Below the pieces are notes generated by a model. That model had not been told where the DNA came from. It did not search any database and saw only the letters and a list, made by a program, of their open reading frames with translations. A DNA stretch of 64,000 nt from positions 111,399 through 175,398 of the forward strand of contig JAZTZM010000040.1 of assembly GCA_045637465.1 (NCBI GenBank), given 5' to 3'. Positions 29,097-60,245 of the stretch are shown in pieces. Source of the DNA: Acutalibacteraceae bacterium (GTDB lineage: Bacteria > Bacillota > Clostridia > Oscillospirales > Acutalibacteraceae). Numbering within the stretch: the first letter of the stretch is position 1; the number at the start of each line of letters is the position of its first letter. A program made the translations under genes and the position numbers.

Positions 29097-29124
29097 CACA
29101 TTATTTTAAAGGACGAGGTTCAGC

Positions 29125-31320
29125 TTGGTTAATGATGAAACAGAAATCATCGGTATCGTCGAAGACGTTTCGGTGCATATTGAAGAGACCGGCTTTACCG
29201 TGCTTGAGCTGTCGAGCGATGATGAATTCATCACCGTTGTCGGCGTGCTGCCCGATGTTGCAGTCGGTGAAAAGCTGACCGTCAGGGGCAACTATGATAC
29301 GCATCCGCTCTACGGCAGACAGTTCAAGGCAAAATCCTTTGCGCGCTCGCTTCCCTCAAGTGCGCAGGATTTATACAAATACCTTTCTGCAGGCACTGTC
29401 AAAGGCATAGGCCCTGCAACAGCGCAGAAAATTGTTGAGGAATTCGGTGACGATGCATTTGACATTCTCGAAAATCATCCCGAAAAGCTCAGCAAAATCA
29501 AAGGTATCTCAAGGCAGAAGGCGAACACAATCTGCGAGGAGTTTTCGCGTCAGTTTGCCGTCAGACAGACTCTTATTGCGCTCGAAAAATTCGGTATGAC
29601 CGCAAGAGAGAGCCTTAACGCATACAAAATTTTCGGCTTCAATGCCGTTGCTATGATTAAAACAAATCCGTACATTCTCTGCGCGGAGAGCATAGGTGTC
29701 AACTTTGAGCGAGCCGATGCAATTGCATCGTCACTGCCGGACAAGCCCGAGCAGATGCACCGCATACGTGCAGGTGTGCTTCACGTGCTCCGCCACAACC
29801 TCGGCAACGGTCATACCTGCTGCCCGAGAGATAAGCTGGCTCTGCCGGCAACCGAGCTGCTCGGTGTTGAGGAGCAGCTTTTGCGTGAAGCAACGGATGC
29901 ACTTATCAGCGACAGACAGCTTGTCAGCGAAGATCTTGACGGCAGGGAGTTCCTTTTTCTGCCATACATACACAGAAGTGAAAAAAATGCCGCAAGGCGC
30001 ATCAAGGTACTCTGCTCATTTCCTCCTGCAGGCAAACCTACACTGCTTCAGGATATTGAGGATATTGAGAATATGCTTTGCATAAGATATGAGCAAAAGC
30101 AGAAGGCGGCAATCATCACCGCTGTTGAAAAAGGTGTGCTTATACTGACCGGCGGTCCCGGTACGGGTAAGACAACCACGATAAACGGTATGATATCGCT
30201 GTTTCAGAAGGATAATCTGCGAATTGCGCTTGCTGCACCTACAGGCAGGGCGGCAAAACGGATGAGCGAAATCACGGGTATGGAGGCAAAGACCATTCAC
30301 AGACTGCTCGAGGTTGAGTGGGATGATGAAGACAATCAGGCATTTTCCAGAAATGAGCGCAACCCGATTGAGGCTGACGTGCTTATTGTGGATGAGCTGT
30401 CGATGATTGATATTCAGCTTTTCTCAAGCCTGCTCGATGCTCTGCCTCTCGGCTGCCGACTGATAATGGTGGGCGATTCCGATCAGCTTCCGCCTGTCGG
30501 CGCAGGCAACGTGCTCCACGATATGATAGGCAGCGGTATGCTGCCCGTTGTTGAGCTTAAAGAGGTGTTCCGTCAGGCTCAGCGCAGTGTGATTGTCACA
30601 AACGCACACAGAATTGTTTCGGGTGAAAACCCCGACCTTACAAGAAAAGACGGAGACTTTTTCTTCTTGCCCAGAAGAGTCGGTTCTCAGGCGGCAGATA
30701 CCGTTTGTGAGCTTTGTGCAAACCGTCTGCCAAAGGCTTACGACTATTCGCCGATAACTGATATTCAGGTGCTCTGCCCCTCCAGAAGAGGCGAAATGGG
30801 CACGTATAACCTCAACCGCCGTTTGCAGGAGGTAATAAATCCCCCCGATAAGAGGAAGAATGAAATTACCGTTGGTATGTTCCGCTTCCGTGAGGGCGAT
30901 AAGGTAATGCACATCAAAAACAACTACGACATCCTCTGGAAAAAGCCTGACGGCGAAGAGGGCAGCGGAGTTTTCAATGGCGATATCGGCACGATTGAGT
31001 CGATAAGACCCGACGGTATGACAAAGATAGTTTTCGATGACGGCAGAGAGTGCAGCTACTTCCCCGATACGATGAGGGAGCTTGAGCTTGCCTATGCCGT
31101 TACCGTGCACAAAAGTCAGGGCAACGAGTTTGAGGCGGTTGTTATGCCCGTGCTCAACACACCCGAGCTTCTCAGCTACCGTAACCTGCTTTACACAGCG
31201 GTTACAAGGGCGAAAAAGCTGATGATAATTGTCGGCAATGAGGAGCAGATATACAGAATGGCGCGCAACGATAAAAAGGCAAGGCGCTATTCGGCACTCA
31301 GACATTTTCTGCTTGAGTGA
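29125..31320 (+). CDS. recD2: RecD2-type SF1B ATP-dependent DNA helicase
   Basis: Walker A GGPGTGKTT, ...LIVDELSMID..., ...MVGDSDQLPPVG..., ...TVHKSQGNEF..., HhH region ...GIGPATAQKI.... Confidence 0.9.
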   Translation: MVNDETEIIGIVEDVSVHIEETGFTVLELSSDDEFITVVGVLPDVAVGEKLTVRGNYDTHPLYGRQFKAKSFARSLPSSAQDLYKYLSAGTVKGIGPATAQKIVEEFGDDAFDILENHPEKLSKIKGISRQKANTICEEFSRQFAVRQTLIALEKFGMTARESLNAYKIFGFNAVAMIKTNPYILCAESIGVNFERADAIASSLPDKPEQMHRIRAGVLHVLRHNLGNGHTCCPRDKLALPATELLGVEEQLLREATDALISDRQLVSEDLDGREFLFLPYIHRSEKNAARRIKVLCSFPPAGKPTLLQDIEDIENMLCIRYEQKQKAAIITAVEKGVLILTGGPGTGKTTTINGMISLFQKDNLRIALAAPTGRAAKRMSEITGMEAKTIHRLLEVEWDDEDNQAFSRNERNPIEADVLIVDELSMIDIQLFSSLLDALPLGCRLIMVGDSDQLPPVGAGNVLHDMIGSGMLPVVELKEVFRQAQRSVIVTNAHRIVSGENPDLTRKDGDFFFLPRRVGSQAADTVCELCANRLPKAYDYSPITDIQVLCPSRRGEMGTYNLNRRLQEVINPPDKRKNEITVGMFRFREGDKVMHIKNNYDILWKKPDGEEGSGVFNGDIGTIESIRPDGMTKIVFDDGRECSYFPDTMRELELAYAVTVHKSQGNEFEAVVMPVLNTPELLSYRNLLYTAVTRAKKLMIIVGNEEQIYRMARNDKKARRYSALRHFLLE

Positions 31321-31344
31321 TAAAGAAAAGGAGGAAAACCTATA

Positions 31345-31887
31345 ATGGAAAATTTTACGTTTGATGACGGCATTGAGCCGGGCGGACTCAGGTCGCGCAA
31401 TGAAATAAAGGTGCTTGTCTGCTATCTGCTTGCAGGTGTGGATGAGAGAATAACAAGAAGTCAGCTCTGTGAGATTGCACTTGATAAGGGTCTTGCAAAT
31501 TATTTCGAGGTCAATCAGGCTGTGAGCGAGCTTATCGAAAACGGTGCAGTGGTTTCTGATTTTATCGAGTGTGAGGAGTATCTCAGCGTCACCGATAAGG
31601 GTCGCTCATCCTCGAAAATGCTCGAGAGTCAGCTGCCGCGCTCTGTCAGAGAGAAGGCAATCAACGCCGCAATAAAAATGCTCACCCTTGCCAAGCGCAA
31701 GCGTGAGAATAAGGTTGAGGTCGAAAGGCTGGAGGATGGCGGTTTCCACGTAACCTTCACGATGGAAGAGATGATGAAGCTGACGATTTATGTCGCCGAC
31801 GAAATGCAGGTTGAAACGGTCAAGAATAATTTCTATGAAGACCCGATAAAACTGTATTCGGGCATTATAGCTTCACTTACAGTGTGA
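31345..31887 (+). CDS. DUF4364-family protein
   Basis: 180 aa starting ...GGLRSRNEIKVLVCYLL.... Family assignment is from memory of DUF4364. A good RBS (AGGAGGA) lies upstream. Confidence 0.65.
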   Translation: MENFTFDDGIEPGGLRSRNEIKVLVCYLLAGVDERITRSQLCEIALDKGLANYFEVNQAVSELIENGAVVSDFIECEEYLSVTDKGRSSSKMLESQLPRSVREKAINAAIKMLTLAKRKRENKVEVERLEDGGFHVTFTMEEMMKLTIYVADEMQVETVKNNFYEDPIKLYSGIIASLTV

Positions 31888-31891
31888 TAAC

Positions 31892-32138
31892 GAATTGGTT
31901 TACCAATTCAAATCATGTTGCACAGCAACAAATCATGGCAATAAGCCAAATCATGCGCAAGCAAATCATCAGGATATAAAAATAATGATACAAACTTACC
32001 TCGGTGTCGCTGACTTAACTTTGCGTATCAACTTTATTGAGGTATTAAAAATATGATTTGCCTGACGGCATGATTTGATTTCTTCGAAATCGTGATTTGT
32101 AAAATAAATTTTACATGATTTGTGTTTTTTTAAAACAC
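31892..32138. repeat. Composite hairpin-array element, copy A: 4x [G..C hairpin + AAATCAT], insert, then 4x [ATGATTT + G..C hairpin]
   Basis: AAATCAT at 31910, 31930, 31948, 31963. ATGATTT/GTGATTT at 32053, 32070, 32092, 32115. Each is flanked by a small hairpin (for example GAATTG/CAATTC, GTTGC/GCAAC, GCC/GGC, GATTTC/GAAATC, GTAAAAT/ATTTTAC, GTGTTTT/AAAACAC). Confidence 0.85.
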
Positions 32139-32196
32139 ATTTTATATATTAGGTAATAAACTCAAAGTATATTATAAAACGAAAGGCTGATAAAAA

Positions 32197-33861
32197 ATGG
32201 CAAAGTATACAATAGGTCTCGATTACGGCACGCTTTCCGGACGTGCGCTTATCGTCAACGTTGAAACAGGCGAGGAGCTTGCAAGCAGCGTTTACGAATA
32301 TCCCCACGCAGTTATGGATGAGAAGCTTCCCTGCGGCAAAAAGCTCGGTCAGGACTGGGCGCTTCAGCATCCGCAGGATTACATAGACGTGCTCAGCATC
32401 ACAATCCCCGACGTTATCAAAAAGAGCGGTGTTGATGCTGATGATATTATCGGTGTCGGTATCGACTTTACGGCTTGTACGGTGCTCCCCACAACAAAGA
32501 GCGGCACTCCGCTCTGCTTCCTTGATGAGTATAAGTCAGAGCCGCACGCTTACGTAAAGCTCTGGAAGCACCATGCTGCACAGGCACATGCAACACGCCT
32601 TAACGATATCGCAATCGAAATGGGTGAGGAGTGGCTTGAGAATTACGGCGGCAAAATTTCCTCCGAGTGGGCAATTCCGAAGCTCTGGCAGATTCTTGAC
32701 GAAGCTCCCGAAATCTATGAGAAGGCAGAGCGTTTCATCGAGGCTACAGACTGGGTTGTATGGCAGCTCACAGGTGTTGAAACACGCAACTCCTGCTGTG
32801 CAGGCTATAAGGCAATGTGGAATAAGACCACAGGCTATCCCTCAAACGAATTCTTCAAGGCTCTCGACCCGAGAATGGAGAACGTTATCGACGAAAAATT
32901 CGGCAGAGAGGTGCTTGCAAGCGGTAAGTGCGCAGGCTACATCACAGAAGAGGCTGCAAAGCTCACAGGTCTTAAACCCGGTACAGCTGTTGCCGCAGGT
33001 ATTATCGACGCTCATATTTTTGTTCCCGCTGTCGGTGTATCAAAGCCCGGTGAGATGGTTGCAATTATCGGCACGTCAACCTGCCATATGATGATGTCAG
33101 ATGTTGAGAAGAAGGTAAAGGGCATCTGCGGTGTTGTTGCAGACGGCATTATGCCCGGCCTTTACGGCTATGAAGCAGGTCAGAGCTGTGTCGGTGACCA
33201 CTTCGGTTGGTTTATTGACAACTGCCTGCCCGAAAGCTACTACAAAGAAGCTCAGGAGAAGGGTATCAATATCCACAAGCTCCTTCGCTCCAAGTGTGAG
33301 GCACAGAAACCCGGCGCAAGCGGACTTGTCGCACTCGATTGGTGGAACGGCAACCGTTCAATCCTCGTTGACGTTGACCTTACGGGTATGATTGTCGGTA
33401 TGACACTTCGCACAAAGCCTGAAGAAATCTACCGTGCACTTATCGAGGCAACGGCATACGGCACAAGAATGATTATTGAAAACTACCGTGAGCAGGGCGT
33501 TGAGGTCAACTCCTTCTATGCCGCAGGCGGTATTTCACAGAAAGACCCGATGACAATGCAGATTTATGCAGATATCATCAAAATGCCCATCAAGATTGCA
33601 GGCTCAGACCAGGGCGGTGCACTCGGCTCAGCTATCTTCGGTGCAGTTGCCGCAGGCAGTGAGAAGGGCGGCTATGACGACGCTTTCTATGCTGCAAGCA
33701 TTATGGGTAAGGTTAAGGACGTTGTTTACGAGCCTATCAAGGAGAATTCCGATATTTACGATAAGCTCTATGCAGAGTATAAGATTCTTCACGATTATTT
33801 CGGTCAGGGCGGTAACGACGTTATGAAGCGCCTTAAGGCAATCAAGGGCGAGAACGAATAA
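32197..33861 (+). CDS. araB: L-ribulokinase (FGGY family)
   Basis: The N-terminus [25 protein letters not shown]...[11 protein letters not shown] closely resembles Bacillus AraB. Length is 554 aa. Confidence 0.88.
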
Positions 33862-33895
33862 TTCGGAATTATATTAAATTTAAGGAGGCAAGGCT

Positions 33896-34642
33896 TTGAA
33901 GAATGACCGACGCAGAATACATCTTATTGATGAGATAAGAGGTCTGTCAATAATACTTATGGTGTTTTACCACGGCTTCTTTATGCTCGGTTATTTTTTC
34001 GGGATAGAGTTTCTTGCAAAGGCGCAGACCTTTTTTGAACCGCTTCAGCCTGTTTTCGCCTGCCTCTTTATCTTTATTTCGGGCATATCGTCAAACCTTT
34101 CACGCAGCAATTTCAAGCGTGGCATAAGGCTGCTTGCAATTGCTCTCGGGTTTACGCTGGTTACGGCGGTTATACTGCCGAAATTTGACATAACGGGCGC
34201 AGAGATTTATTTCGGCGTGCTTCATCTGCTGAGCGTTTCGATGCTGCTTTATGCTTTGCTCAGACCGCTGCTTGCAAAGGTTAACACAACTGTCGGCATA
34301 CTTGCGACGCTTGTGCTTTTTGCGGTGAGTTATACTGTGCCAAAGGGCAATCTCATTGGGCTTGATTTGCCCGATGCGCCGTATAACCTCGGCTTTCTTG
34401 CTCCGCTCGGTTTTCCGGGTGAAGGTTTTTATTCGGCGGATTATTTTCCGCTTATTCCGTTTGTTTTTATGTTTGTTGCCGGCACGTTTTTCGGCAGACT
34501 CGCAACGTCGGGCAAGCTGCCTGAGTGGTGGTATGTTTCGCGTTGCAAGCCTCTGGCGGTTGTCGGCGGCAAAACGCTTATAATTTATATACTCCATTGG
34601 CCGATTATATTTTTAATAGGCTTGATAATCTCGCTGTTTTAA
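33896..34642 (+). CDS. DUF1624 (heparan-alpha-glucosaminide N-acetyltransferase-like) membrane protein
   Basis: ...RIHLIDEIRGLSIILMVFYH... N-terminal motif and multiple TM segments. TTG start 7 nt after GGAGG. Confidence 0.68.
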   Translation: MKNDRRRIHLIDEIRGLSIILMVFYHGFFMLGYFFGIEFLAKAQTFFEPLQPVFACLFIFISGISSNLSRSNFKRGIRLLAIALGFTLVTAVILPKFDITGAEIYFGVLHLLSVSMLLYALLRPLLAKVNTTVGILATLVLFAVSYTVPKGNLIGLDLPDAPYNLGFLAPLGFPGEGFYSADYFPLIPFVFMFVAGTFFGRLATSGKLPEWWYVSRCKPLAVVGGKTLIIYILHWPIIFLIGLIISLF

Positions 34643-34703
34643 TGTATAATGGGCACAGGTATATGTTCAGAAATTAAGAATTATAAAGTAAGGGTGACTT
34701 ATT

Positions 34704-35051
34704 ATGGAGAAAAACAGAGTCAGACTCAACATCTGCGGTGCAGATTACAGCATTACAACAGAGGACGATCCCAAGTACGTTATGGCGCTTGGCGATGAGC
34801 TTGATGCAGCTCTCACAAAGACACTTCGTGAGAACAGCCGTCTTTCCGTAACACAGGCTGCTATCCTTGCAGCTCTCGAATATGCTGATATGTACAAGAA
34901 GGCAGAAGTAAGCGCAGACAATCTCCGCGGTCAGATCAAGGAATATCTTGAGGATTCCGCACGCTCCAAGATGGATGCAGAGATTGCAAAGCGTGAGGTC
35001 GAAAGACTTACAAGAGAGCTTCAGAACGCTCAGGCAAAGCTCGGTGGTTGA
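34704..35051 (+). CDS. zapA: Cell division protein ZapA
   Basis: ...VRLNICGADYSITTEDDPKYV...LSVTQAAILAAL... followed by a coiled-coil tail. Confidence 0.85.
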   Translation: MEKNRVRLNICGADYSITTEDDPKYVMALGDELDAALTKTLRENSRLSVTQAAILAALEYADMYKKAEVSADNLRGQIKEYLEDSARSKMDAEIAKREVERLTRELQNAQAKLGG

Positions 35052-37089
35052 GGTATTAGCTCCTGCCGGAACATATGAAGCTGTTGAGGCGGCGGTGCGC
35101 TGTGGCGCAGACGCTGTTTACCTCGGCGGCAAAGTGCTGAATGCCCGCCGAAATGCGGGCAATTTCAGTTTTGAGGAGCTTAAATCGGCAACAGAATATT
35201 GTCACGTCAGAGGCACAAAGGTTTATCTGACGCTTAATACGCTCGCTTCGGATGCTGAACTTAAAAATGATGTTCAGTGTGCGGTGCGCGATGCCTGCGC
35301 GGCAGGTGTTGACGCTCTTATCATTCAGGATATGGGCGTTTTTCGTCTTGCAAAAATGTGTGCGCCCACAATGCCGCTGCACGCTTCAACACAGATGTCG
35401 GTGCATACGCTCGCAGGTGTAAAGCAGCTTGCAGAGATGGGCTTTTCCCGTGCGGTGCTCGCAAGGGAGCTTTCGCTTGATGAGATTGAATATATAGTTA
35501 AAAATTCACCTATTGATATAGAAGTGTTTGTTCACGGTGCGCTTTGTATGTGCGTTTCGGGTCAGTGCCTGATGAGCGCAATGCTCGGCTCACGCAGCGC
35601 AAACAGAGGGCTTTGTGCCCAGCCTTGCCGCTTGCCCTTTGCCGCAACCGACGGCACGGGCAACGACCTGAGCCTCAAGGATCTGTCAGCGATTGATTAC
35701 CTTGAAAAGCTTCGGGAAATCGGCGTAAAATCGTTCAAAATAGAGGGCAGAATGAAACGCCCGGAATATGTCGCCGCCGCTGTTACAGCGTGCAGAAAGG
35801 CGCTTAAAAACGAAAATGATGCTGTTTTGCGTGATCAGCTCCGCGGTGTGTTCTCACGCTCGGGTTTTACGCACGGCTATCTGACGGGTGAGCTTGGCAG
35901 GGATATGTTCGGCATCCGCCGTAAGGATGACGTTACTGCGGCACAGCCGGTGCTTAAAGAGCTTGCAAGGCTTTATGAAAAGGAGACACCCCGTGTCGGT
36001 GTTGATTTTATGTTCTGCGCCTATGAGGGCGAAACGGCAAGCCTCTCCGCAAAGGCGGCGGGCAAGAGCGCTTTTGTGCTCGGTGATGTCGAGGCACAGC
36101 CTGCACAGAACGTTCCTCTGACAGAAGAAAAGGTGCGCCAGCAGCTCGAAAAATGCGGCGGCACACCATTCTTTGTGAGCAGTATCGAGACGGATATTGA
36201 TGATAATATCAGCCTGCCTTTGTCGTCAATAAATGCACTCCGCAGAGCAGCTTTTGATAAACTCTACGAAGAGTTAAAACGCCCTTACAACCACGGTTTC
36301 AGGCCAATTAATGTGGAAAACTATGTGAAAAAAGTGAAAAACCCACAGTTTTTCGCACGTTTTTCTAAGTTTGAACAGGCAAAAGCAGTTTGGGAAAATG
36401 TGGAAAAGGTTATTCTTCCACTCTCCCAGGCACAGAAATCTGCAGAGAAAAATGCGGCAAAAACAGTGGCTGAAATACCGAGAGTATTTTTTGGGAAAGA
36501 GGACACGGTGCTCGAAAAACTGCGTGCTTTAAAACAGCTCGGAGTAGAGTGGGCAGCGTGCTCAACGCTTGATGCCGTTTACCTTGCAAAAAAGGCTCAG
36601 ATGCGGATTGTGCTGAGTATGGGAAGCAACGTTTTCAACTCGCTGAGCGCAGTGCAGGCAGAGGAGCTTGGCGCGGAAAAAATTGTTCTTTCGCCCGAAC
36701 TTACACTTATGCAGGCTTCGAAGGTTGGCGGTAAGAGCGAAAAGGGACTCATCGTTTACGGCAAGCTGCCGCTTATGATAACACGCAACTGCCCCATAAA
36801 GAACGGTACGGACTGTGCTCACTGCGGCGGCAAACGAAAGCTGACCGACAGGCTCGGCGTGGAATTTCCCGTGGTGTGTGAAAACGGCTATTCGCAGGTG
36901 CTCAATTCAAGACCGATTTATATGGCTGACAGACTGAGTGAAACCGCATTTGCCGATTTTAATCTGCTCTGGTTTACGGACGAGAGCGGTGATGAATGTA
37001 AACAGGTGCTTGAAAAGTATATGAGCGGTGCACCTGCACCCGACACAAAGGATTTTACACGCGGACTGTATTACAGAGGTGTGGAATAA
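35044..37089 (+). CDS. Peptidase U32 family protein
   Basis: ...EVLAPAGTYEAVEAAVRCGADAVYLGG..., ...E.F.HGALC...SGQC..S.....RSANRG.C.Q.CR... U32 signature. The start is uncertain. GTG at 35044 overlaps the zapA stop, and the track start at 34948 lies inside zapA. Confidence 0.82.
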   Translation: MVEVLAPAGTYEAVEAAVRCGADAVYLGGKVLNARRNAGNFSFEELKSATEYCHVRGTKVYLTLNTLASDAELKNDVQCAVRDACAAGVDALIIQDMGVFRLAKMCAPTMPLHASTQMSVHTLAGVKQLAEMGFSRAVLARELSLDEIEYIVKNSPIDIEVFVHGALCMCVSGQCLMSAMLGSRSANRGLCAQPCRLPFAATDGTGNDLSLKDLSAIDYLEKLREIGVKSFKIEGRMKRPEYVAAAVTACRKALKNENDAVLRDQLRGVFSRSGFTHGYLTGELGRDMFGIRRKDDVTAAQPVLKELARLYEKETPRVGVDFMFCAYEGETASLSAKAAGKSAFVLGDVEAQPAQNVPLTEEKVRQQLEKCGGTPFFVSSIETDIDDNISLPLSSINALRRAAFDKLYEELKRPYNHGFRPINVENYVKKVKNPQFFARFSKFEQAKAVWENVEKVILPLSQAQKSAEKNAAKTVAEIPRVFFGKEDTVLEKLRALKQLGVEWAACSTLDAVYLAKKAQMRIVLSMGSNVFNSLSAVQAEELGAEKIVLSPELTLMQASKVGGKSEKGLIVYGKLPLMITRNCPIKNGTDCAHCGGKRKLTDRLGVEFPVVCENGYSQVLNSRPIYMADRLSETAFADFNLLWFTDESGDECKQVLEKYMSGAPAPDTKDFTRGLYYRGVE

Positions 37090-37146
37090 GCCTTGTTTTT
37101 AAAGGTAGTCTGTGATAAAATAATTACAGTTTCTCAAAAAGCTAAT

Positions 37147-37323
37147 GAATTGATTCTAATCAATTCAAATCATGGAGCGTAAGCGAGAAATCATGGCGTT
37201 TACGCCAAATCATGTGACAGCAAATCATTTTAATTTTATTTTATGATTTGCCTTACGGCATGATTTGATTTAAAAAATCATGAATTGCAAAATTTTTATT
37301 TTGCATGATTTGCGATAAGTCGC
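37147..37323. repeat. Composite hairpin-array element, copy B: 4x [hairpin + AAATCAT] directly abutting 4x [ATGATTT + hairpin]
   Basis: AAATCAT at 37167, 37188, 37207, 37222. ATGATTT/ATGAATT at 37243, 37260, 37280, 37305. Hairpins are GAATTG/CAATTC, GGCG/CGCC, GCC/GGC, GATTT/AAATC, GCAAAAT/ATTTTGC, GCGA/TCGC. Confidence 0.85.
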
Positions 37324-37324
37324 A

Positions 37325-37418
37325 TTTATTGAGGTATCAAAAACGGAAAGGCAGAGAATAAAGCTTTCCTCGGTGTCTCGATGTCAAATAGTAAATCAAT
37401 TTTATTGAGGTATTAAAA
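37325..37418 (+). promoter_or_regulatory. Structured 5' leader of the DUF896 gene with a duplicated SD-containing 13-mer and a single anti-SD
   Basis: TTTATTGAGGTAT at 37325 and again at 37401 (the real RBS). GGAAAGC/GCTTTCC hairpin at 37345-37369. CCTC anti-SD at 37368-37371. Confidence 0.45.
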
Positions 37419-37625
37419 ATGGAACAGTGGGAATATGACAGAATAAGTGAGCTGACAAGGATTGCGCGTGAGCGTGAGCTGACACCTGAAGAGCAGGAAG
37501 AGCGTGCAGACCTGAGAAGAAGGTATATTGATTCCTTCAAGCGCAGCCTGACTTCACAGCTTGACGTGACTTATATCGTTGACGAAAAGGGCAACAAAAC
37601 CAAACTTGAGCGTAAGAAAAAATAA
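37419..37625 (+). CDS. DUF896 (UPF0291, YnzC-like) small protein
   Basis: 68 aa, ...RINELARKSK-type helix (ISELTRIARERELTPEEQEERADLRRRYIDSFK) typical of DUF896. Confidence 0.8.
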   Translation: MEQWEYDRISELTRIARERELTPEEQEERADLRRRYIDSFKRSLTSQLDVTYIVDEKGNKTKLERKKK

Positions 37626-37649
37626 TTTAACACTGAGAGGTGCTTTAAA

Positions 37650-38504
37650 ATGTATAATTTTTCAATCGGCGTAATTATTGACTCGTTCCGTCTTCCTATC
37701 AAGGATGCGGTGAAGAAGGCAGCTGAGGTTGGTGCTCAGGGCATTCAGGTCTATTCAACAAGGGGCGAAATGGCTCCCGAGAACCTTGATGCTGCTGCAC
37801 GTGCCGAGTTCAAAAAGTTGGTTGAGGGCAACGGCCTTGTTATCTCCGCTCTCTGCGGTGACCTTGGCGGCGGCGGATTCAGCTTTGCTGACAGAAACCC
37901 CGAGAAGATTGAGAAATCAAAGAGAATTCTCGACCTTGCAAAGGAGCTTGGCACAAACGTTGTAACAACACACATCGGTGTTGTGCCTGAGGATAAGAAC
38001 CACGACAGATATAAGGTTATGCAGGAGGCTTGCTACGAGCTTTCACGCTATGCTGACGAAATCGGTGCTCATTTCGCAATTGAAACAGGTCCCGAAACAT
38101 CCGCAGTGCTCAAGGATTTCCTCGATTCACTCGGCTCAACAGGTGTCGGTGTAAACCTTGACCCCGCAAACCTTGTTATGGTAACAGGTGACGACCCCGT
38201 AGGTGCGGTTTACAACCTTCAGAAGTATATCGTACATACACACGCTAAGGACGGCGTTCAGAATTTTGTTGAAGATCCCGAAATTGTTTACGGCCTTAAG
38301 AAGAGACCCGTTGACGTTATTGTCACAGGCGATTCGTTTGATGAAGTTCCGCTTGGCGAAGGCAGTGTTCCGTGGGATGGCTACCTCAAGGCACTTGACG
38401 ATATCGGATATAAAGGCTTCCTTACAATCGAGCGTGAGGTCGGCGACAATCCTGCAGAGGATATCCGTAAGGCAGTTAAATTCCTGGAGGATCATATCAG
38501 ATAA
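37650..38504 (+). CDS. Sugar phosphate isomerase/epimerase (xylose isomerase-like TIM barrel)
   Basis: AP_endonuc_2-type pattern ...FAIETGPE..., ...NLDPANL..., ...HAKDG.... RBS GAGAGG upstream. Confidence 0.82.
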   Translation: MYNFSIGVIIDSFRLPIKDAVKKAAEVGAQGIQVYSTRGEMAPENLDAAARAEFKKLVEGNGLVISALCGDLGGGGFSFADRNPEKIEKSKRILDLAKELGTNVVTTHIGVVPEDKNHDRYKVMQEACYELSRYADEIGAHFAIETGPETSAVLKDFLDSLGSTGVGVNLDPANLVMVTGDDPVGAVYNLQKYIVHTHAKDGVQNFVEDPEIVYGLKKRPVDVIVTGDSFDEVPLGEGSVPWDGYLKALDDIGYKGFLTIEREVGDNPAEDIRKAVKFLEDHIR

Positions 38505-39364
38505 TGAAATTCTCAGTCAGTTCATACAGCTTTCAGCGTCTGCTGAACAGCGGAAAGTATACACAGCTTGATCTTATAAATGTCGCAAAAGAGATGGGCT
38601 TTGACGGTATTGAGTTTATCGACCTTATGCCGACAGACGGTATGAGCGACCTTGAATATGCGGCGGTGCTCCGTGATGCGGCAGAAAAAGCAGGCATCGA
38701 GATTGTGGCTTATACAATCGGTGCGGACTTCCTTGGCGAAAAAGGATGGGAGGCAGAGGCACAAAGGCTTTACGGTCAGGTCGATGTGGCTTATGCTCTT
38801 GGTGCCAAACGTATGCGTCACGATGCAACGGGCGGCTTTAAGGGCGCAGACGCAAAGTATAAGAGCTTTGACAGCGCGCTGCCGATTCTGGCTGACGGAT
38901 GCCGCAAGGTTACCGAGTATGCCGAGCAGAAGGGAATTGCAACAATGGTCGAAAACCACGGCTATTTCTGCCAGGATTCCGTAAGGGTTGAGAAGCTTGT
39001 TAACGCAGTTGCTCACCCGAATTTCGGTCTGCTTGTCGATATGGGCAACTTTATGTGTGCCGACGATGAGCCTGCGACTGCAGTCGGCAGAGTTGCAAAT
39101 TATGCAAAGCACGTCCACGCAAAGGATTTTCATAAGAAGAGCGGCAACGGCCCTGACCCGGGCGACGGCTTCTTCCGTACACGCGGCGGTGATTACCTCA
39201 GAGGTGCTGTTGTCGGTCACGGTGACGTGCCCGTTTATCAGTGTGTTCAGACCCTTAAACGCAGCGGTTATGACGGATATGTCAGCATCGAGTTTGAGGG
39301 CGTTGAGGATAACGAGTGGGCAATCAAAACAGGCCTTGCAAACCTGAAAAAATACGCGGAATAA
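38504..39364 (+). CDS. Sugar phosphate isomerase/epimerase (xylose isomerase-like TIM barrel), second paralog
   Basis: ...MVENHG..., ...LLVDMGNF..., ...HVHAKD..., ...SIEFEG.... The start overlaps the upstream stop (TAATG). Confidence 0.82.
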   Translation: MKFSVSSYSFQRLLNSGKYTQLDLINVAKEMGFDGIEFIDLMPTDGMSDLEYAAVLRDAAEKAGIEIVAYTIGADFLGEKGWEAEAQRLYGQVDVAYALGAKRMRHDATGGFKGADAKYKSFDSALPILADGCRKVTEYAEQKGIATMVENHGYFCQDSVRVEKLVNAVAHPNFGLLVDMGNFMCADDEPATAVGRVANYAKHVHAKDFHKKSGNGPDPGDGFFRTRGGDYLRGAVVGHGDVPVYQCVQTLKRSGYDGYVSIEFEGVEDNEWAIKTGLANLKKYAE

Positions 39365-39384
39365 AGTTTTGCCCCGAAATTGAA

Positions 39385-39432
39385 TAAAAAAATAACGGCT
39401 TGAGAAGGTTGATCCCTCTCAGGCCGTTTTTT
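39385..39432. terminator. Bidirectional terminator between TIM-barrel and GH3-family genes
   Basis: AACGGCTTGAGAAGG ttgat CCCTCTCAGGCCGTT with an A-run before and a T-run after. Confidence 0.65.
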
Positions 39433-39442
39433 AGTTCAGAAT

Positions 39443-41188
39443 TTATTCGTCATTCTTGTGCTCGTTGTAGTAATCAATGGTTGATGATTCTGCTGTGAGC
39501 ACGTGTGAGAAGAAGAACTCTTCTCTGGGCTTGGTGTTGATAACCGTAACAGGTTTGATCTGGTTGAGAACAACACCCTGTGCGCGGAGATTCTCTCTGT
39601 AATCCCAGTATGTGTTGGGGTTGAGGATGAGAATTTCGGGACGGTTGAGCATACCCCAACGTCTATACTTGTAGTACTTCTCGTTAACGTCTTTAAGCTC
39701 TTCGTCAAGAATGTCAATCATTTCCTGGCGCTTCTCTTCGCTTACGTCGCCCTTAAGCTCTGCAAAGAGACAGTAGCGGGGAGGATTGGAGGAGAAATCG
39801 GGATAGAAGCTGTAGCCGACGAAATCGGAGCTTGTTCTCTCGAACATCTTCTTTGCTGCGTAGTCAACCATTGCGGTTGTTGTCTTTTCGTTGGCAACGT
39901 TCATGCTCAGGTTCTTTCTGTAAAGGAACTCGATAACGGGTGTATCGTTATGCATTCTTGTAACCTGAACGATATCCTCCATACGGTATCTGTAAAGACC
40001 TGAAGAGTTTGTAACAACAAGCTCATACTTTTTGCCAACCTCAACCTCGTTGATAAGCAGGGTCTTTGGTGTTTCTGTCTCCTCTTCTTCAGCGTCATCG
40101 TTTACGGGGATGAACTCGAAGAAGATGCTGTAGGGGATAAGTGCGCTGTCGTGTGTGTCAAGCTCTGTCGGCATTGCGAAGAAGCCTTCAGCAGCAGCGT
40201 AACCCATATTGTGAATCGGAACGTTGTCACCGATTGAGCGGCGGAGCTTTTCAACGTAAACCTTGAGGTTTGAGCCGATCATACCGTAAGCGAACGTAAG
40301 TCTGGGCCAGATTCTGGGTGCGATGGGTGTATCGAAGCCCTTGCGGAATTCTTTGCGGAGGAATTCTGCTCTCTTGGGGTTGGGCTTAAGCTTCTTTTCG
40401 TATTCTGCACGAAGCTCGGGTGTGATCTTGATGTTTTCGCCGATTGTGCCGTGCTCGATATCGTCGCAGAGCTGTTCCCAGTTTTCCTCAAGGTAGTCAA
40501 ACATTGTTGTAACAAGAGTTATAACAATACTACCGATGTAGGAAACCTTCTCTTCCTGAAGTGCGAAACGAAGCTGAAGATATGATGTGTCAAGCAGCTC
40601 CTCGTGCTCAGGATAAAGCAGAGAAACGGGAGAGGTGACGAAGAAATTAGAGAAAGGCTTGAGATATGTCAGCGGAACCTGACCGGCACCGTTGCACATC
40701 TTGCCGTCTTCAAGCTTGTGACCTGTAAGGATAATAACGAGCGGACCCATGATAGCGGGCAGCTTTTTGCCCATGTGCTTTTTGATGTGGCGGGATGTTA
40801 CGGCAACAGTGCAGGAGAAACCGCAGCACTGCATATTCCACAGGTCAAAAATTGATTTGGGAAGAATCTTCGGCTTGCCGACACTGCCTGATGATGAGCA
40901 GTAACGGATGTTGGCACCCGTGTACATAATATTCTTCTCTCTGTTGTGGATCATACGGTCTACGAGCGCGTCGTAATCTTCGTAGGTTGAAAGCGGAACC
41001 TTTGAACGGAAATCTTCTAAACTGTGAATGTTGGCAAAATCTAACTTCTTGCCGAGTTCACAGTTCTTGTTTTTTCTGATGATTTTGTTGAGAAGTTTCT
41101 TCTGAGCTTTCATCGGGTTCTTTGACGTACGCTCAAATTTGGCGAGGGTTACTTCGCCAAGCAATGCGCCTAAATCTGAAAAATTCAT
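39443..41188 (-). CDS. GH3-family (auxin-responsive GH3-like) acyl-adenylate-forming enzyme, bacterial homolog
   Basis: 581 aa. N-terminal ...NPMKAQKKLLNKII..N...ELGKK..F..I.S.EDFRSKVPLSTYEDY... and ...SSGSVGKPK.. P-loop-like motif, as recalled for PF03321. Confidence 0.8.
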   Translation of the reverse strand: MNFSDLGALLGEVTLAKFERTSKNPMKAQKKLLNKIIRKNKNCELGKKLDFANIHSLEDFRSKVPLSTYEDYDALVDRMIHNREKNIMYTGANIRYCSSSGSVGKPKILPKSIFDLWNMQCCGFSCTVAVTSRHIKKHMGKKLPAIMGPLVIILTGHKLEDGKMCNGAGQVPLTYLKPFSNFFVTSPVSLLYPEHEELLDTSYLQLRFALQEEKVSYIGSIVITLVTTMFDYLEENWEQLCDDIEHGTIGENIKITPELRAEYEKKLKPNPKRAEFLRKEFRKGFDTPIAPRIWPRLTFAYGMIGSNLKVYVEKLRRSIGDNVPIHNMGYAAAEGFFAMPTELDTHDSALIPYSIFFEFIPVNDDAEEEETETPKTLLINEVEVGKKYELVVTNSSGLYRYRMEDIVQVTRMHNDTPVIEFLYRKNLSMNVANEKTTTAMVDYAAKKMFERTSSDFVGYSFYPDFSSNPPRYCLFAELKGDVSEEKRQEMIDILDEELKDVNEKYYKYRRWGMLNRPEILILNPNTYWDYRENLRAQGVVLNQIKPVTVINTKPREEFFFSHVLTAESSTIDYYNEHKNDE

Positions 41189-41327
41189 TGTACACTTCCT
41201 TTACCTTATAAATCATTGAATCGGGATGTTTTAAATCATACAGGGTTATTATAGCATATTTAGAAAAATAATAATTCTAAAAAAGAAAAATAAAAGCAAA
41301 ATAAGCAGAAAATATGTGGAAAATATA

Positions 41328-41357
41328 ACAGACAGGTAACAAAATGTACCTGTCTGT
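41328..41357 (-). terminator. Terminator after gdhA
   Basis: ACAGACAGGTA ... TACCTGTCTGT 11-bp stem immediately downstream of the gdhA stop. Confidence 0.55.
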
Positions 41358-60069: not shown

Positions 60070-60245
60070 CGGGCAATTGTCATCCGGGTATTTCGACTGC
60101 GGTGCGTGCTTATTTCACCTTCTCAAGATTATTCTCAATGGCTTGTCCCCGATTTGCGGCATCGGGCAGAAAAAAGCAAAAAACGTTGCACCTCACGGCG
60201 ACGGGCTCGTGCAGGAGTTTCACCTGCTTCCCCGACAATGACCTA
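60070..60245 (-). promoter_or_regulatory. Cobalamin (B12) riboswitch
   Basis: Minus strand reads GGTCATTGTCGGGGAAGCAGGTGAAACTCCTGCACGAGCCCGTCGCCGTGAGG...AGTCGAAATACCCGGATGACAAT. This matches the conserved GGGAA-N3-GGTGAAA.TCC...CCCG.C.C.GT core. The 5' ATTGTCGGGG can pair with the 3' CCCG-GAT-GACAAT. Confidence 0.7.

Follow-up and report, generated by a model that had tools for sequence, protein, structure and literature searches.

Organization of the hairpin-array locus

The DNA analyzed in this study is a 64-kb stretch of an Acutalibacteraceae genome (contig JAZTZM010000040.1; hereafter the window, meaning the whole stretch of 64,000 nucleotides [nt]), and the element in question is copy B, a hairpin array located between the genes of a U32 peptidase and a DUF896 protein. 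Copy B is a noncoding miniature member of a dispersed family of palindromic hairpin arrays and is ordinary for its family. The repeat unit is a short, perfectly paired hairpin with a G-C closing pair, followed by AAATCAT; each arm contains four units, and the second arm is the inverted image of the first. The genes and arrays are arranged in the order RecD2, DUF4364, copy A, FGGY kinase, DUF1624, ZapA, U32 peptidase, copy B, DUF896, and two AP_endonuc_2 genes. A and B, the only two copies in the window, are both inside co-directional gene clusters, between protein-coding genes. The original prediction, made from the sequence of the window alone, had placed copy B between U32 and DUF896 with a 4 + 4 layout; reading the sequence confirmed this, and the blocks shared by A and B and all of the listed differences between their stems are present as described there. 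The features of the two copies and of the adjoining repeat, module M, are as follows.

37144..37326: copy B, a complete 4 + 4 hairpin-array element in the gene-less short form, identified from the sequence and with covariance model R1
37144..37228, + strand: left (F) arm of copy B, AAT and then H0, linkers (L) and spacers alternating
37147-37166: hairpin H0 of copy B, GAATTG-attctaat-CAATTC
37167-37173, 37188-37194, 37207-37213, and 37222-37228: forward AAATCAT linkers of copy B
37174-37187 (spacer), 37195-37206 (hairpin), and 37214-37221 (spacer): left-arm spacers of copy B
37229..37242: inter-arm loop of copy B, 14 nt, A+T
37243..37326, + strand: right (R) arm of copy B, four linker-hairpin units with ATT at the end
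37243 (ATGATTT), 37260 (ATGATTT), 37280 (ATGAATT, variant), and 37305 (ATGATTT): reverse linkers of copy B
37250-37259 (GCC/GGC), 37267-37279 (GATTT/AAATC), 37287-37304 (GCAAAAT/ATTTTGC), and 37312-37323 (GCGA/TCGC): right-arm hairpins of copy B
37324..37418, + strand: module M at locus B, approximately 1.3 tandem copies (partial at 37324-37346, full at approximately 37347-37418)
31889..32141: copy A, the long form, with the F arm at 31889-31969, module M between the arms at 31970-32052, and the R arm at 32053-32141

Copy A has the same 4 + 4 layout as copy B, and its arms are separated by an 83-nt module. The corresponding inter-arm position, a 14-nt loop in copy B, is taken by module M or by a PF05635 gene in other copies. 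One of the four right-arm linkers is a variant in each copy, i.e., ATGAATT in B and GTGATTT in A. The second spacer of copy B (GGAGCGtaaGCGAG) is not a plain Watson-Crick hairpin and has a GC core with tandem G/A on both sides, and the fourth (GTGACAGC) has a 2-bp stem at best. A GGAGCG-loop-GCGAG (or TGAGCG...GCGAA) spacer recurs in many loci at the same array position as window 37174-37187; tandem G/A flanks its GC core instead of Watson-Crick pairs, it is strand specific, and a plain GTTGC/GCAAC hairpin alternates with it at this position.

The motif AAATCATG occurs 11 times in the window versus 4.1 expected, and all 11 occurrences are inside A or B; it is absent from the rest of the 64 kb, despite approximately four occurrences expected by chance. 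The pattern AAATCAT-N6-26-AAATCAT has nine matches in the window versus 0.05 expected, and the folding z-scores of the arrays are -4.7 to -6.8 on either strand. The covariance model R1, which was built from 14 related right arms, all gene-less, matched only A and B in a search of the 64 kb. The right arms scored 110.6 bits (A) and 83.6 bits (B; 37243-37326, + strand), and the left arms, on the opposite strand, scored 45.3 bits (A) and 34.6 bits (B; 37144-37228, - strand). An Rfam search of the window copies gave no family at the gathering threshold or at a relaxed limit of E = 10, and promoter and terminator scans of the arrays gave weak consensus matches only.

Maintenance of the hairpin structures

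Comparison loci from other contigs are designated by L and a number. Among 211 distinct inter-linker spacers, 73% have at least three perfect pairs from their ends versus 2.7% of shuffles. The first base of the spacer is G in 200 and the last base is C in 182 of the 211, and the conserved core is thus C-AAATCAT-G. From one lineage to another the stems change completely, those of L012 and L084 being G+C-rich and those of the window A+T-rich, but the linker stays the same. Copy A is present in L112, a locus syntenic with window 29124-34546 (84%), and copy B is present in L022, a locus syntenic with window 35552-41344 (82%). Between A and L112, both sides of two stems have changed, GAATTG/CAATTC to GAATCG/CGATTC and GTAAAAT/ATTTTAC to GCAAAAT/ATTTGC. 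When 14 right arms were aligned, 96.9% of the cells were paired; 10 cells in four pairs had changed on both sides, and none had changed on one side only. The covariation score of this alignment exceeded all 500 shuffles and all slid controls.

The original prediction had argued for selection on structure, and the double changes in orthologous copies bear this out, as does the covariation of the 14 arms relative to the 500 shuffles, the kind of test that it had itself proposed. Its further claim of compensatory change stands in part: double changes exist, but some of the differences are module exchange between copies, as in the mosaic arms of L215, which means that not all stem variation is stepwise substitution in place. 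The data support the view that the array hairpins are maintained as structures and not merely copied.

The stems are approximately 98% Watson-Crick (723 pairs versus 18 nonstandard), a level of pairing more to be expected of palindromic DNA than of helices in RNA. In both arms, the strand that reads AAATCAT has GAA, GCA, GTA, or GNNA loops and more G.T than A.C (10 versus 4 and 11 versus 3). Minority linker variants are mirrored in the partner arm in 3 of 84 cases versus 2.9 expected from shuffles, indicating that the linker is conserved as a sequence and not as a pairing partner. A ladder model, in which the arms pair linker to linker in stacked four-way junctions, was rejected as a selected feature on the same count.

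A further explanation is that a host DNA-binding protein of, for example, the nucleoid-associated or partition type uses the linkers as iterons in double-stranded DNA, with the palindromic spacers incidental or serving for spacing only. The invariant 9-mer C-AAATCAT-G, present four times per orientation, fits such a site, as do the 8-mer without occurrence in the window outside the arrays and the perfect palindromes, which are compatible with a DNA-level reading. However, the linkers are spaced by 15 to approximately 40 bp with no helical phasing, the loop bias toward GNA is strand specific, and hairpin potential with its G-C closing pair, needless for duplex binding, has been kept through full turnover of the stem sequences. 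We consider the iteron explanation improbable.

A dispersed family in Clostridia

A and B are not a private pair but belong to a large, dispersed, strain-polymorphic family related to Gut-1 and to PF05635 genes, which the original prediction did not see. A scan of 185,579 species genomes for three spaced copies of AAATCATG gave 119 loci, approximately 45 of which are Clostridia metagenome-assembled genomes (MAGs) from animal guts with the same design, often repeated within a locus. About half of the 119 loci were rejected as unrelated; the non-Clostridia ones (Borreliella, Nostoc, and others) are ordinary tandem repeats without hairpins. The hosts of the family are Acutalibacteraceae, Oscillospiraceae, Ruminococcaceae, Christensenellaceae, and unclassified Clostridia of gut or rumen, and a single 138-kb contig holds at least 10 copies. 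None of 59 pattern matches in viral sequences has hairpin spacers, and plasmid sequences gave no match to the array pattern.

Of 85 arm pairs, 45 have the 4 + 4 layout and 55 have arms of the same size. Two arm orders were observed, with either the AAATCAT arm first, as in the window, or the ATGATTT arm first, as in the Christensenellaceae locus L093 and the RGIG4012 loci. The flanking-gene arrangement does not distinguish the F-R and R-F orders, both of which are mostly found between co-directional genes. Relative to the flanking genes, 10 elements have the same orientation, 5 the opposite orientation, and 4 a mixed one.

Strain polymorphism at loci A and B

Contigs encoding exactly the DUF4364 protein of the window (locus A) or exactly its DUF896 protein (locus B) were compared. 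Within the identical-DUF4364 set, locus A is filled only in the window and in L215, whose left arm is like that of L112 and whose right arm is like that of the window. It is empty in nine contigs (L210-L214 and L216-L219), in which 35-39 nt (...TAAaaaattttttcaaatataaaacgaaaggctgataaaaaATG) lie between DUF4364 and the kinase. At locus B, the array found in L200, L203, and L206 has hairpins of other sequence, and L201, L204, L205, and L207 have approximately 75 nt of other sequence in its place. In L202 (1812-2420), L208 (502-1110), and L209, a 202-amino-acid (aa) open reading frame (ORF) lies between U32 and DUF896, exactly at the array position; Pfam lists no family for it, and NCBIfam gave no match. 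The array-free alleles (L201, 2330-2410; L204, L205, and L207) contain three copies of CAATTCG, an 11-bp hairpin (ATTATTGCATA...TATGCAATAAT), and ATGAATG, repeats that could be a decayed or a different array.

Elsewhere, L019 has an element between two genes at a site that is empty in the window, and the entire element is flipped in L021 relative to its ortholog L068, with breakpoints at AATG...CATT. Terminal inverted repeats like those of miniature inverted-repeat transposable elements (MITEs) are present; i.e., the arms are inverted images of each other and the ends are AATG...CATT. Comparing orthologous loci for presence, absence, and inversion, as had been proposed, revealed empty sites at both A and B and the whole-element inversion of L021/L068. 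Strains differ by gain, loss, inversion, and reshuffling of the array, all at the level of DNA. The neighboring genes can dispense with copies A and B and are intact in strains without the arrays.

A and B bracket a 5-kb block (FGGY kinase, DUF1624, ZapA, and U32) in direct orientation, and one explanation would make them the two ends of a composite segment, mobile or invertible. L210 and L202, however, are the same contig (SRR22345191_21115), in which the DUF4364-FGGY-DUF1624-ZapA-U32-DUF896 block is intact with neither array, and some other strains carry one array without the other. The block is thus not the cargo of A and B; this strain refutes the composite element, to which we give almost no credence.

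Module M and the DUF896 leader

Module M is separate from the array. It is a repeat of approximately 76 nt (...CCTCGGTG...TTATTGAGGTATTAAAA, ending in TTATTGAGGTATTAAAA) that is found alone, in tandem, inside or outside arrays, and once flipped relative to the arms; further copies are in L045 (4880-5040), L007 (1080-1240), and L079 (6370-6460). The inter-arm segment of copy A had been regarded as an insertion, which agrees with the independence of this repeat and with the presence of a gene at the same position in fuller elements. At locus B, module M supplies the Shine-Dalgarno sequence of DUF896 (ATG at 37419), and all strain variants have it as the DUF896 5' leader, whether or not the array is present. 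CCUCGGUG, located upstream in module M, is able to pair with UAUUGAGG through G.U pairs, but on the + strand only, a restriction that suggests an RNA-level anti-Shine-Dalgarno helix. It is possible that module M is itself a mobile leader for translation.

Copy B is located 93 nt upstream of the DUF896 start, and the intergenic region is 92% conserved in L022, as might be expected of a dedicated riboswitch- or attenuator-like cis-regulatory leader of the DUF896 operon. Such a role is very improbable and is largely refuted by array-free strains with an identical DUF896, which keep module M and the ribosome-binding site; the same element is also found beside unrelated genes and in both orientations. 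A leader peptide was rejected as well: the mini-ORF MICLTA, from the first right-arm linker behind the module M Shine-Dalgarno sequence, loses its frame where the hairpin length differs.

Association with PF05635 genes

PF05635/TIGR02436 proteins are widespread and include homologues of Avd, the accessory protein of diversity-generating retroelements, and of the ORFs of 23S rRNA intervening sequences (IVSs); we know of no function established for them. When ORFs within 1.5 kb of the arrays were clustered, PF05635 was the only family that recurred beside arrays in independent MAGs. The array-adjacent protein has 117-124 aa and matches PF05635 (23S_rRNA_IVP) at E = 1e-25 to 1e-27 as well as TIGR02436 (four helix bundle protein). 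The order is F arm, gene, R arm in L122, L033, and L046; R arm, gene, F arm in L120 and L093; and R arm, F arm, gene in L123-L127 and L047, where both arms are directly upstream of the gene. The complete element of L122 consists of H0, four units, a ribosome-binding site, the gene, and four inverted units, and L120 has 8 + 8 units. The MAG that contains L046, in which the gene lies between the arms, also has many copies of the window type without a gene. Where a PF05635 gene adjoins the array, R1 matches the arms at E = 1e-8 to 1e-3.

The association was also examined in the reverse direction by fetching 80 metagenomic loci starting from the PF05635 protein. Hairpin arrays with AAATCAT/AATTCAT linkers flank the closest relatives, and more distant relatives have the same design with the linkers ATTTCA(C/T)/(G/A)TGAAAT, TATCAC, GATATA, and TATCGC. 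At most of approximately 70 PF05635 loci, the commonest upstream 6-mer is in the AWWTCA(C/T) linker family, usually in both orientations, and the linker sequence changes with the PF05635 clade. PF05635-type protein is a pentameric four-helix bundle (PMC4990558), and the PDB entries 2RLD and 2GSC contain five chains each. The protein is related to Avd of diversity-generating retroelements (PMC10053308). Our literature searches found nothing linking PF05635 genes to flanking hairpin arrays.

Several other arrangements were observed around these genes. Outside Firmicutes, in the Bacteroidota or Ignavibacteriota loci L050 (420-960; Saprospiraceae) and L031 (7100-7700; Melioribacteraceae), PF05635 genes are inside inverted AAGATTAC/ATGATTT or AAGATTA repeats with no hairpins, and L040 (685-843; Bacteroidota) contains a gene-less palindromic version of this hairpin-free array. 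In L123, L124, L125, L127, and L047, the array and the PF05635 gene directly follow a gene whose product ends in ...VDMFPWTEHVE, which resembles a RumA/TrmA-type RNA methyltransferase; this suggests a preferred location.

Relationship to Gut-1 and other repeat systems

To our knowledge, the Gut-1 RNA has been given no function since its description in 2010. Gut-1 (RF01706) was described in that year from human-gut sequences and classed as a probable noncoding RNA; the paper treats it as a single-arm small RNA and mentions no inverted partner, gene association, or polymorphism (Weinberg et al. 2010, PMC2864571). Its consensus, UGAAAU-hairpin-GUGAAAU-hairpin-GUGAAAU-hairpin-GUGAAAU with C(UUC)G loops, comprises three hairpins and four linkers, i.e., one arm. 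RF01706 matches GTGAAAT-type arms beside PF05635 genes at 52-80 bits (L141, 2277-2353 and 3291-3367; L130, 1934-2009 and 2193-2268; L136, 2268-2362; and L120, 4622-4930). Each match is one arm of an inverted array (GTGAAAT arm, center, and ATTTCAC arm) located just upstream of PF05635, near tRNA genes.

The window copies share with Gut-1 at least three short hairpins, an invariant 7-nt linker, and stem covariation, and Gut-1, which is a gut Clostridia-type sequence, has inverted-pair arms beside PF05635 genes, as do the AAATCAT arrays. On the other hand, the linker is AUGAUUU/AAAUCAU in the window and GUGAAAU in Gut-1, and RF01706 gave no match in the window at its gathering threshold (50 bits), nor at E <= 10 over 31500-37800. 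R1 cross-matches Gut-1-type arms weakly. The window copies are a sister variant of Gut-1 and not members of it, because the architecture and gene context are common to both but the model does not match them and the linker is different.

REP/BIME and REPIN-RAYT systems of Proteobacteria consist of short hairpin repeats in inverted pairs, with up to hundreds of intergenic copies and a RAYT gene flanked by repeats of the matching subtype. The arrays resemble them in being inverted doublets of a hairpin and a conserved motif, dispersed between genes in up to hundreds of copies, heritable at orthologous sites, and variable between strains, and in having a single-copy gene that is flanked by the same repeats and whose subtype matches that of the repeat. 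They differ in that the partner gene encodes a 120-aa four-helix-bundle protein and not an HUH/Y1 transposase (RAYT), the unit is iterated four times per arm, and the conserved motif lies between the hairpins and is not a 5' GTAG.

MITEs with structured repeats include Correia, BOX, RUP, and ERIC. Like these, the arrays are small, noncoding, modular, dispersed, and foldable, with inverted ends and optional internal modules. No clean target-site duplication could be read, however, and no parent insertion sequence was found; the larger elements carry only the PF05635 gene and no transposase, and the periodic internal hairpin-linker design is distinctive to the arrays.

The IVSs of 23S rRNA in Coxiella and Leptospira also have a PF05635/TIGR02436 gene inside or next to inverted repeats. 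An ORF of this family within inverted repeats is present in L122, L033, L046, L093, and L120, whereas the window copies have no ORF. In Coxiella, two to four tandem heptamers (GACAGAT) are located just upstream of the S23p ORF (PMC4990558). IVS elements are considered selfish, although no mode of mobility has been established for them, and those carrying a PF05635-family gene are excised as RNA by RNase III (PMC4990558). In contrast to IVSs, the arrays lie between protein-coding genes and not in helix 25 or 45 of 23S rRNA, and their arms are hairpin arrays and not a simple stem.

Proposed function of the array

The most probable reading of copy B is a REPIN/MITE-like element that has no gene and belongs to a hairpin-array family related to Gut-1, and the mechanism that we infer is as follows. 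Reading of each arm would take place on a single strand in folded form, the one with the sequence hairpin-AAATCAT, and the hairpins would serve as spacers that display the invariant linker. A sequence-specific factor would recognize the linker; because the linker sequence tracks the PF05635 clade, the leading candidate is the pentameric PF05635 protein found in the same lineage. Gene-less and gene-bearing arrays would then resemble REPINs and their RAYT gene. An array transcribed within the U32-DUF896 operon would act passively as a stable structured block, and no specific regulatory role is indicated. The GNA/GNNA loops and the mild G.T excess on the hairpin-AAATCAT strand of each arm make the two arms look functional on opposite strands. 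Mini-hairpins with d(C-GNA-G)-type loops are stable in DNA, and such loops, together with the near-perfect pairing, make DNA more likely than RNA as the folded strand.

The alternative is that the array acts mainly as RNA, either as a structured RNA resembling Gut-1 or as an element of untranslated regions to which PF05635 protein binds, which directs RNase processing, or which shields operon transcripts from exonucleases as REP does, with DNA turnover secondary. Its sister motif Gut-1 is classed as a probable noncoding RNA, arrays are commonly directly upstream of the PF05635 ribosome-binding site, and both window copies, being in co-directional clusters, would be transcribed. The PF05635-sense strand of the F arm has a mild G.U excess (11 versus 3), and the RNase III excision of 23S rRNA IVSs with the same gene family is an RNA-level precedent (PMC4990558). 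However, the nearly pure Watson-Crick stems come with no one-sided G-U changes in the 14-copy alignment, and the linkers do not covary between the arms. The loop bias is mirrored between the arms, GNA versus UNC on one strand, so that a single transcript would not see equivalent units. Elements are found in both orientations relative to transcription, and the window copies lack any Rfam match even at E = 10. We regard a mainly RNA-level role as rather unlikely.

Several points weigh against a REPIN/MITE-like element read as a folded DNA strand by a PF05635 protein. RNA and single-stranded DNA are not separable with these data, and the discoverers of Gut-1 judged it to be an RNA (PMC2864571). 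The 64-kb window contains no PF05635 gene. No transposase, recombinase, or nuclease was found in or beside any element, and no transposase-like family recurs within 1.5 kb (48 loci). We know of no catalytic activity of PF05635 proteins, and the correlation between PF05635 and the linker could be co-inheritance rather than recognition. Filled and empty locus A differ by the element and an extra tail of approximately 35 nt, with no readable target-site duplication, and simple cut-and-paste insertion is thus not demonstrated. Identity to L022 is 92% for copy B with its intergenic region versus 82% overall for the syntenic, mostly coding block, a difference that could reflect either a function for the host or concerted evolution of the copies. 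Most of the data are from MAGs and short contigs.

A broader proposal, which we offer tentatively as a possibility, is that PF05635 and Gut-1-type arrays form an unrecognized two-part system, comparable to RAYT and REPINs, in which the protein would read a lineage-specific 7-nt linker exposed between the hairpins of a folded single strand and would thereby drive or maintain the spread of gene-less arrays such as copy B in Clostridia; this system might extend to the heptamers of the Coxiella IVS and to the AATCWT arrays of Bacteroidota. With Gut-1 placed as one arm of an inverted array beside PF05635 genes, two long-standing orphans, Gut-1 and PF05635, are given a testable link. A sister family with a different linker has spread gene-less through Acutalibacteraceae genomes and is polymorphic between strains. 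Binding of PF05635 to the array, the form of nucleic acid that is bound, and IVS-type mobility through such arrays can now be tested. In gut and rumen metagenomes, the arrays also create structural variation between strains and are likely to cause breaks in assemblies.

Outside the arrays, a cobalamin riboswitch (RF00174) was observed at window 60086-60233 on the - strand, with a score of 39.9 bits.

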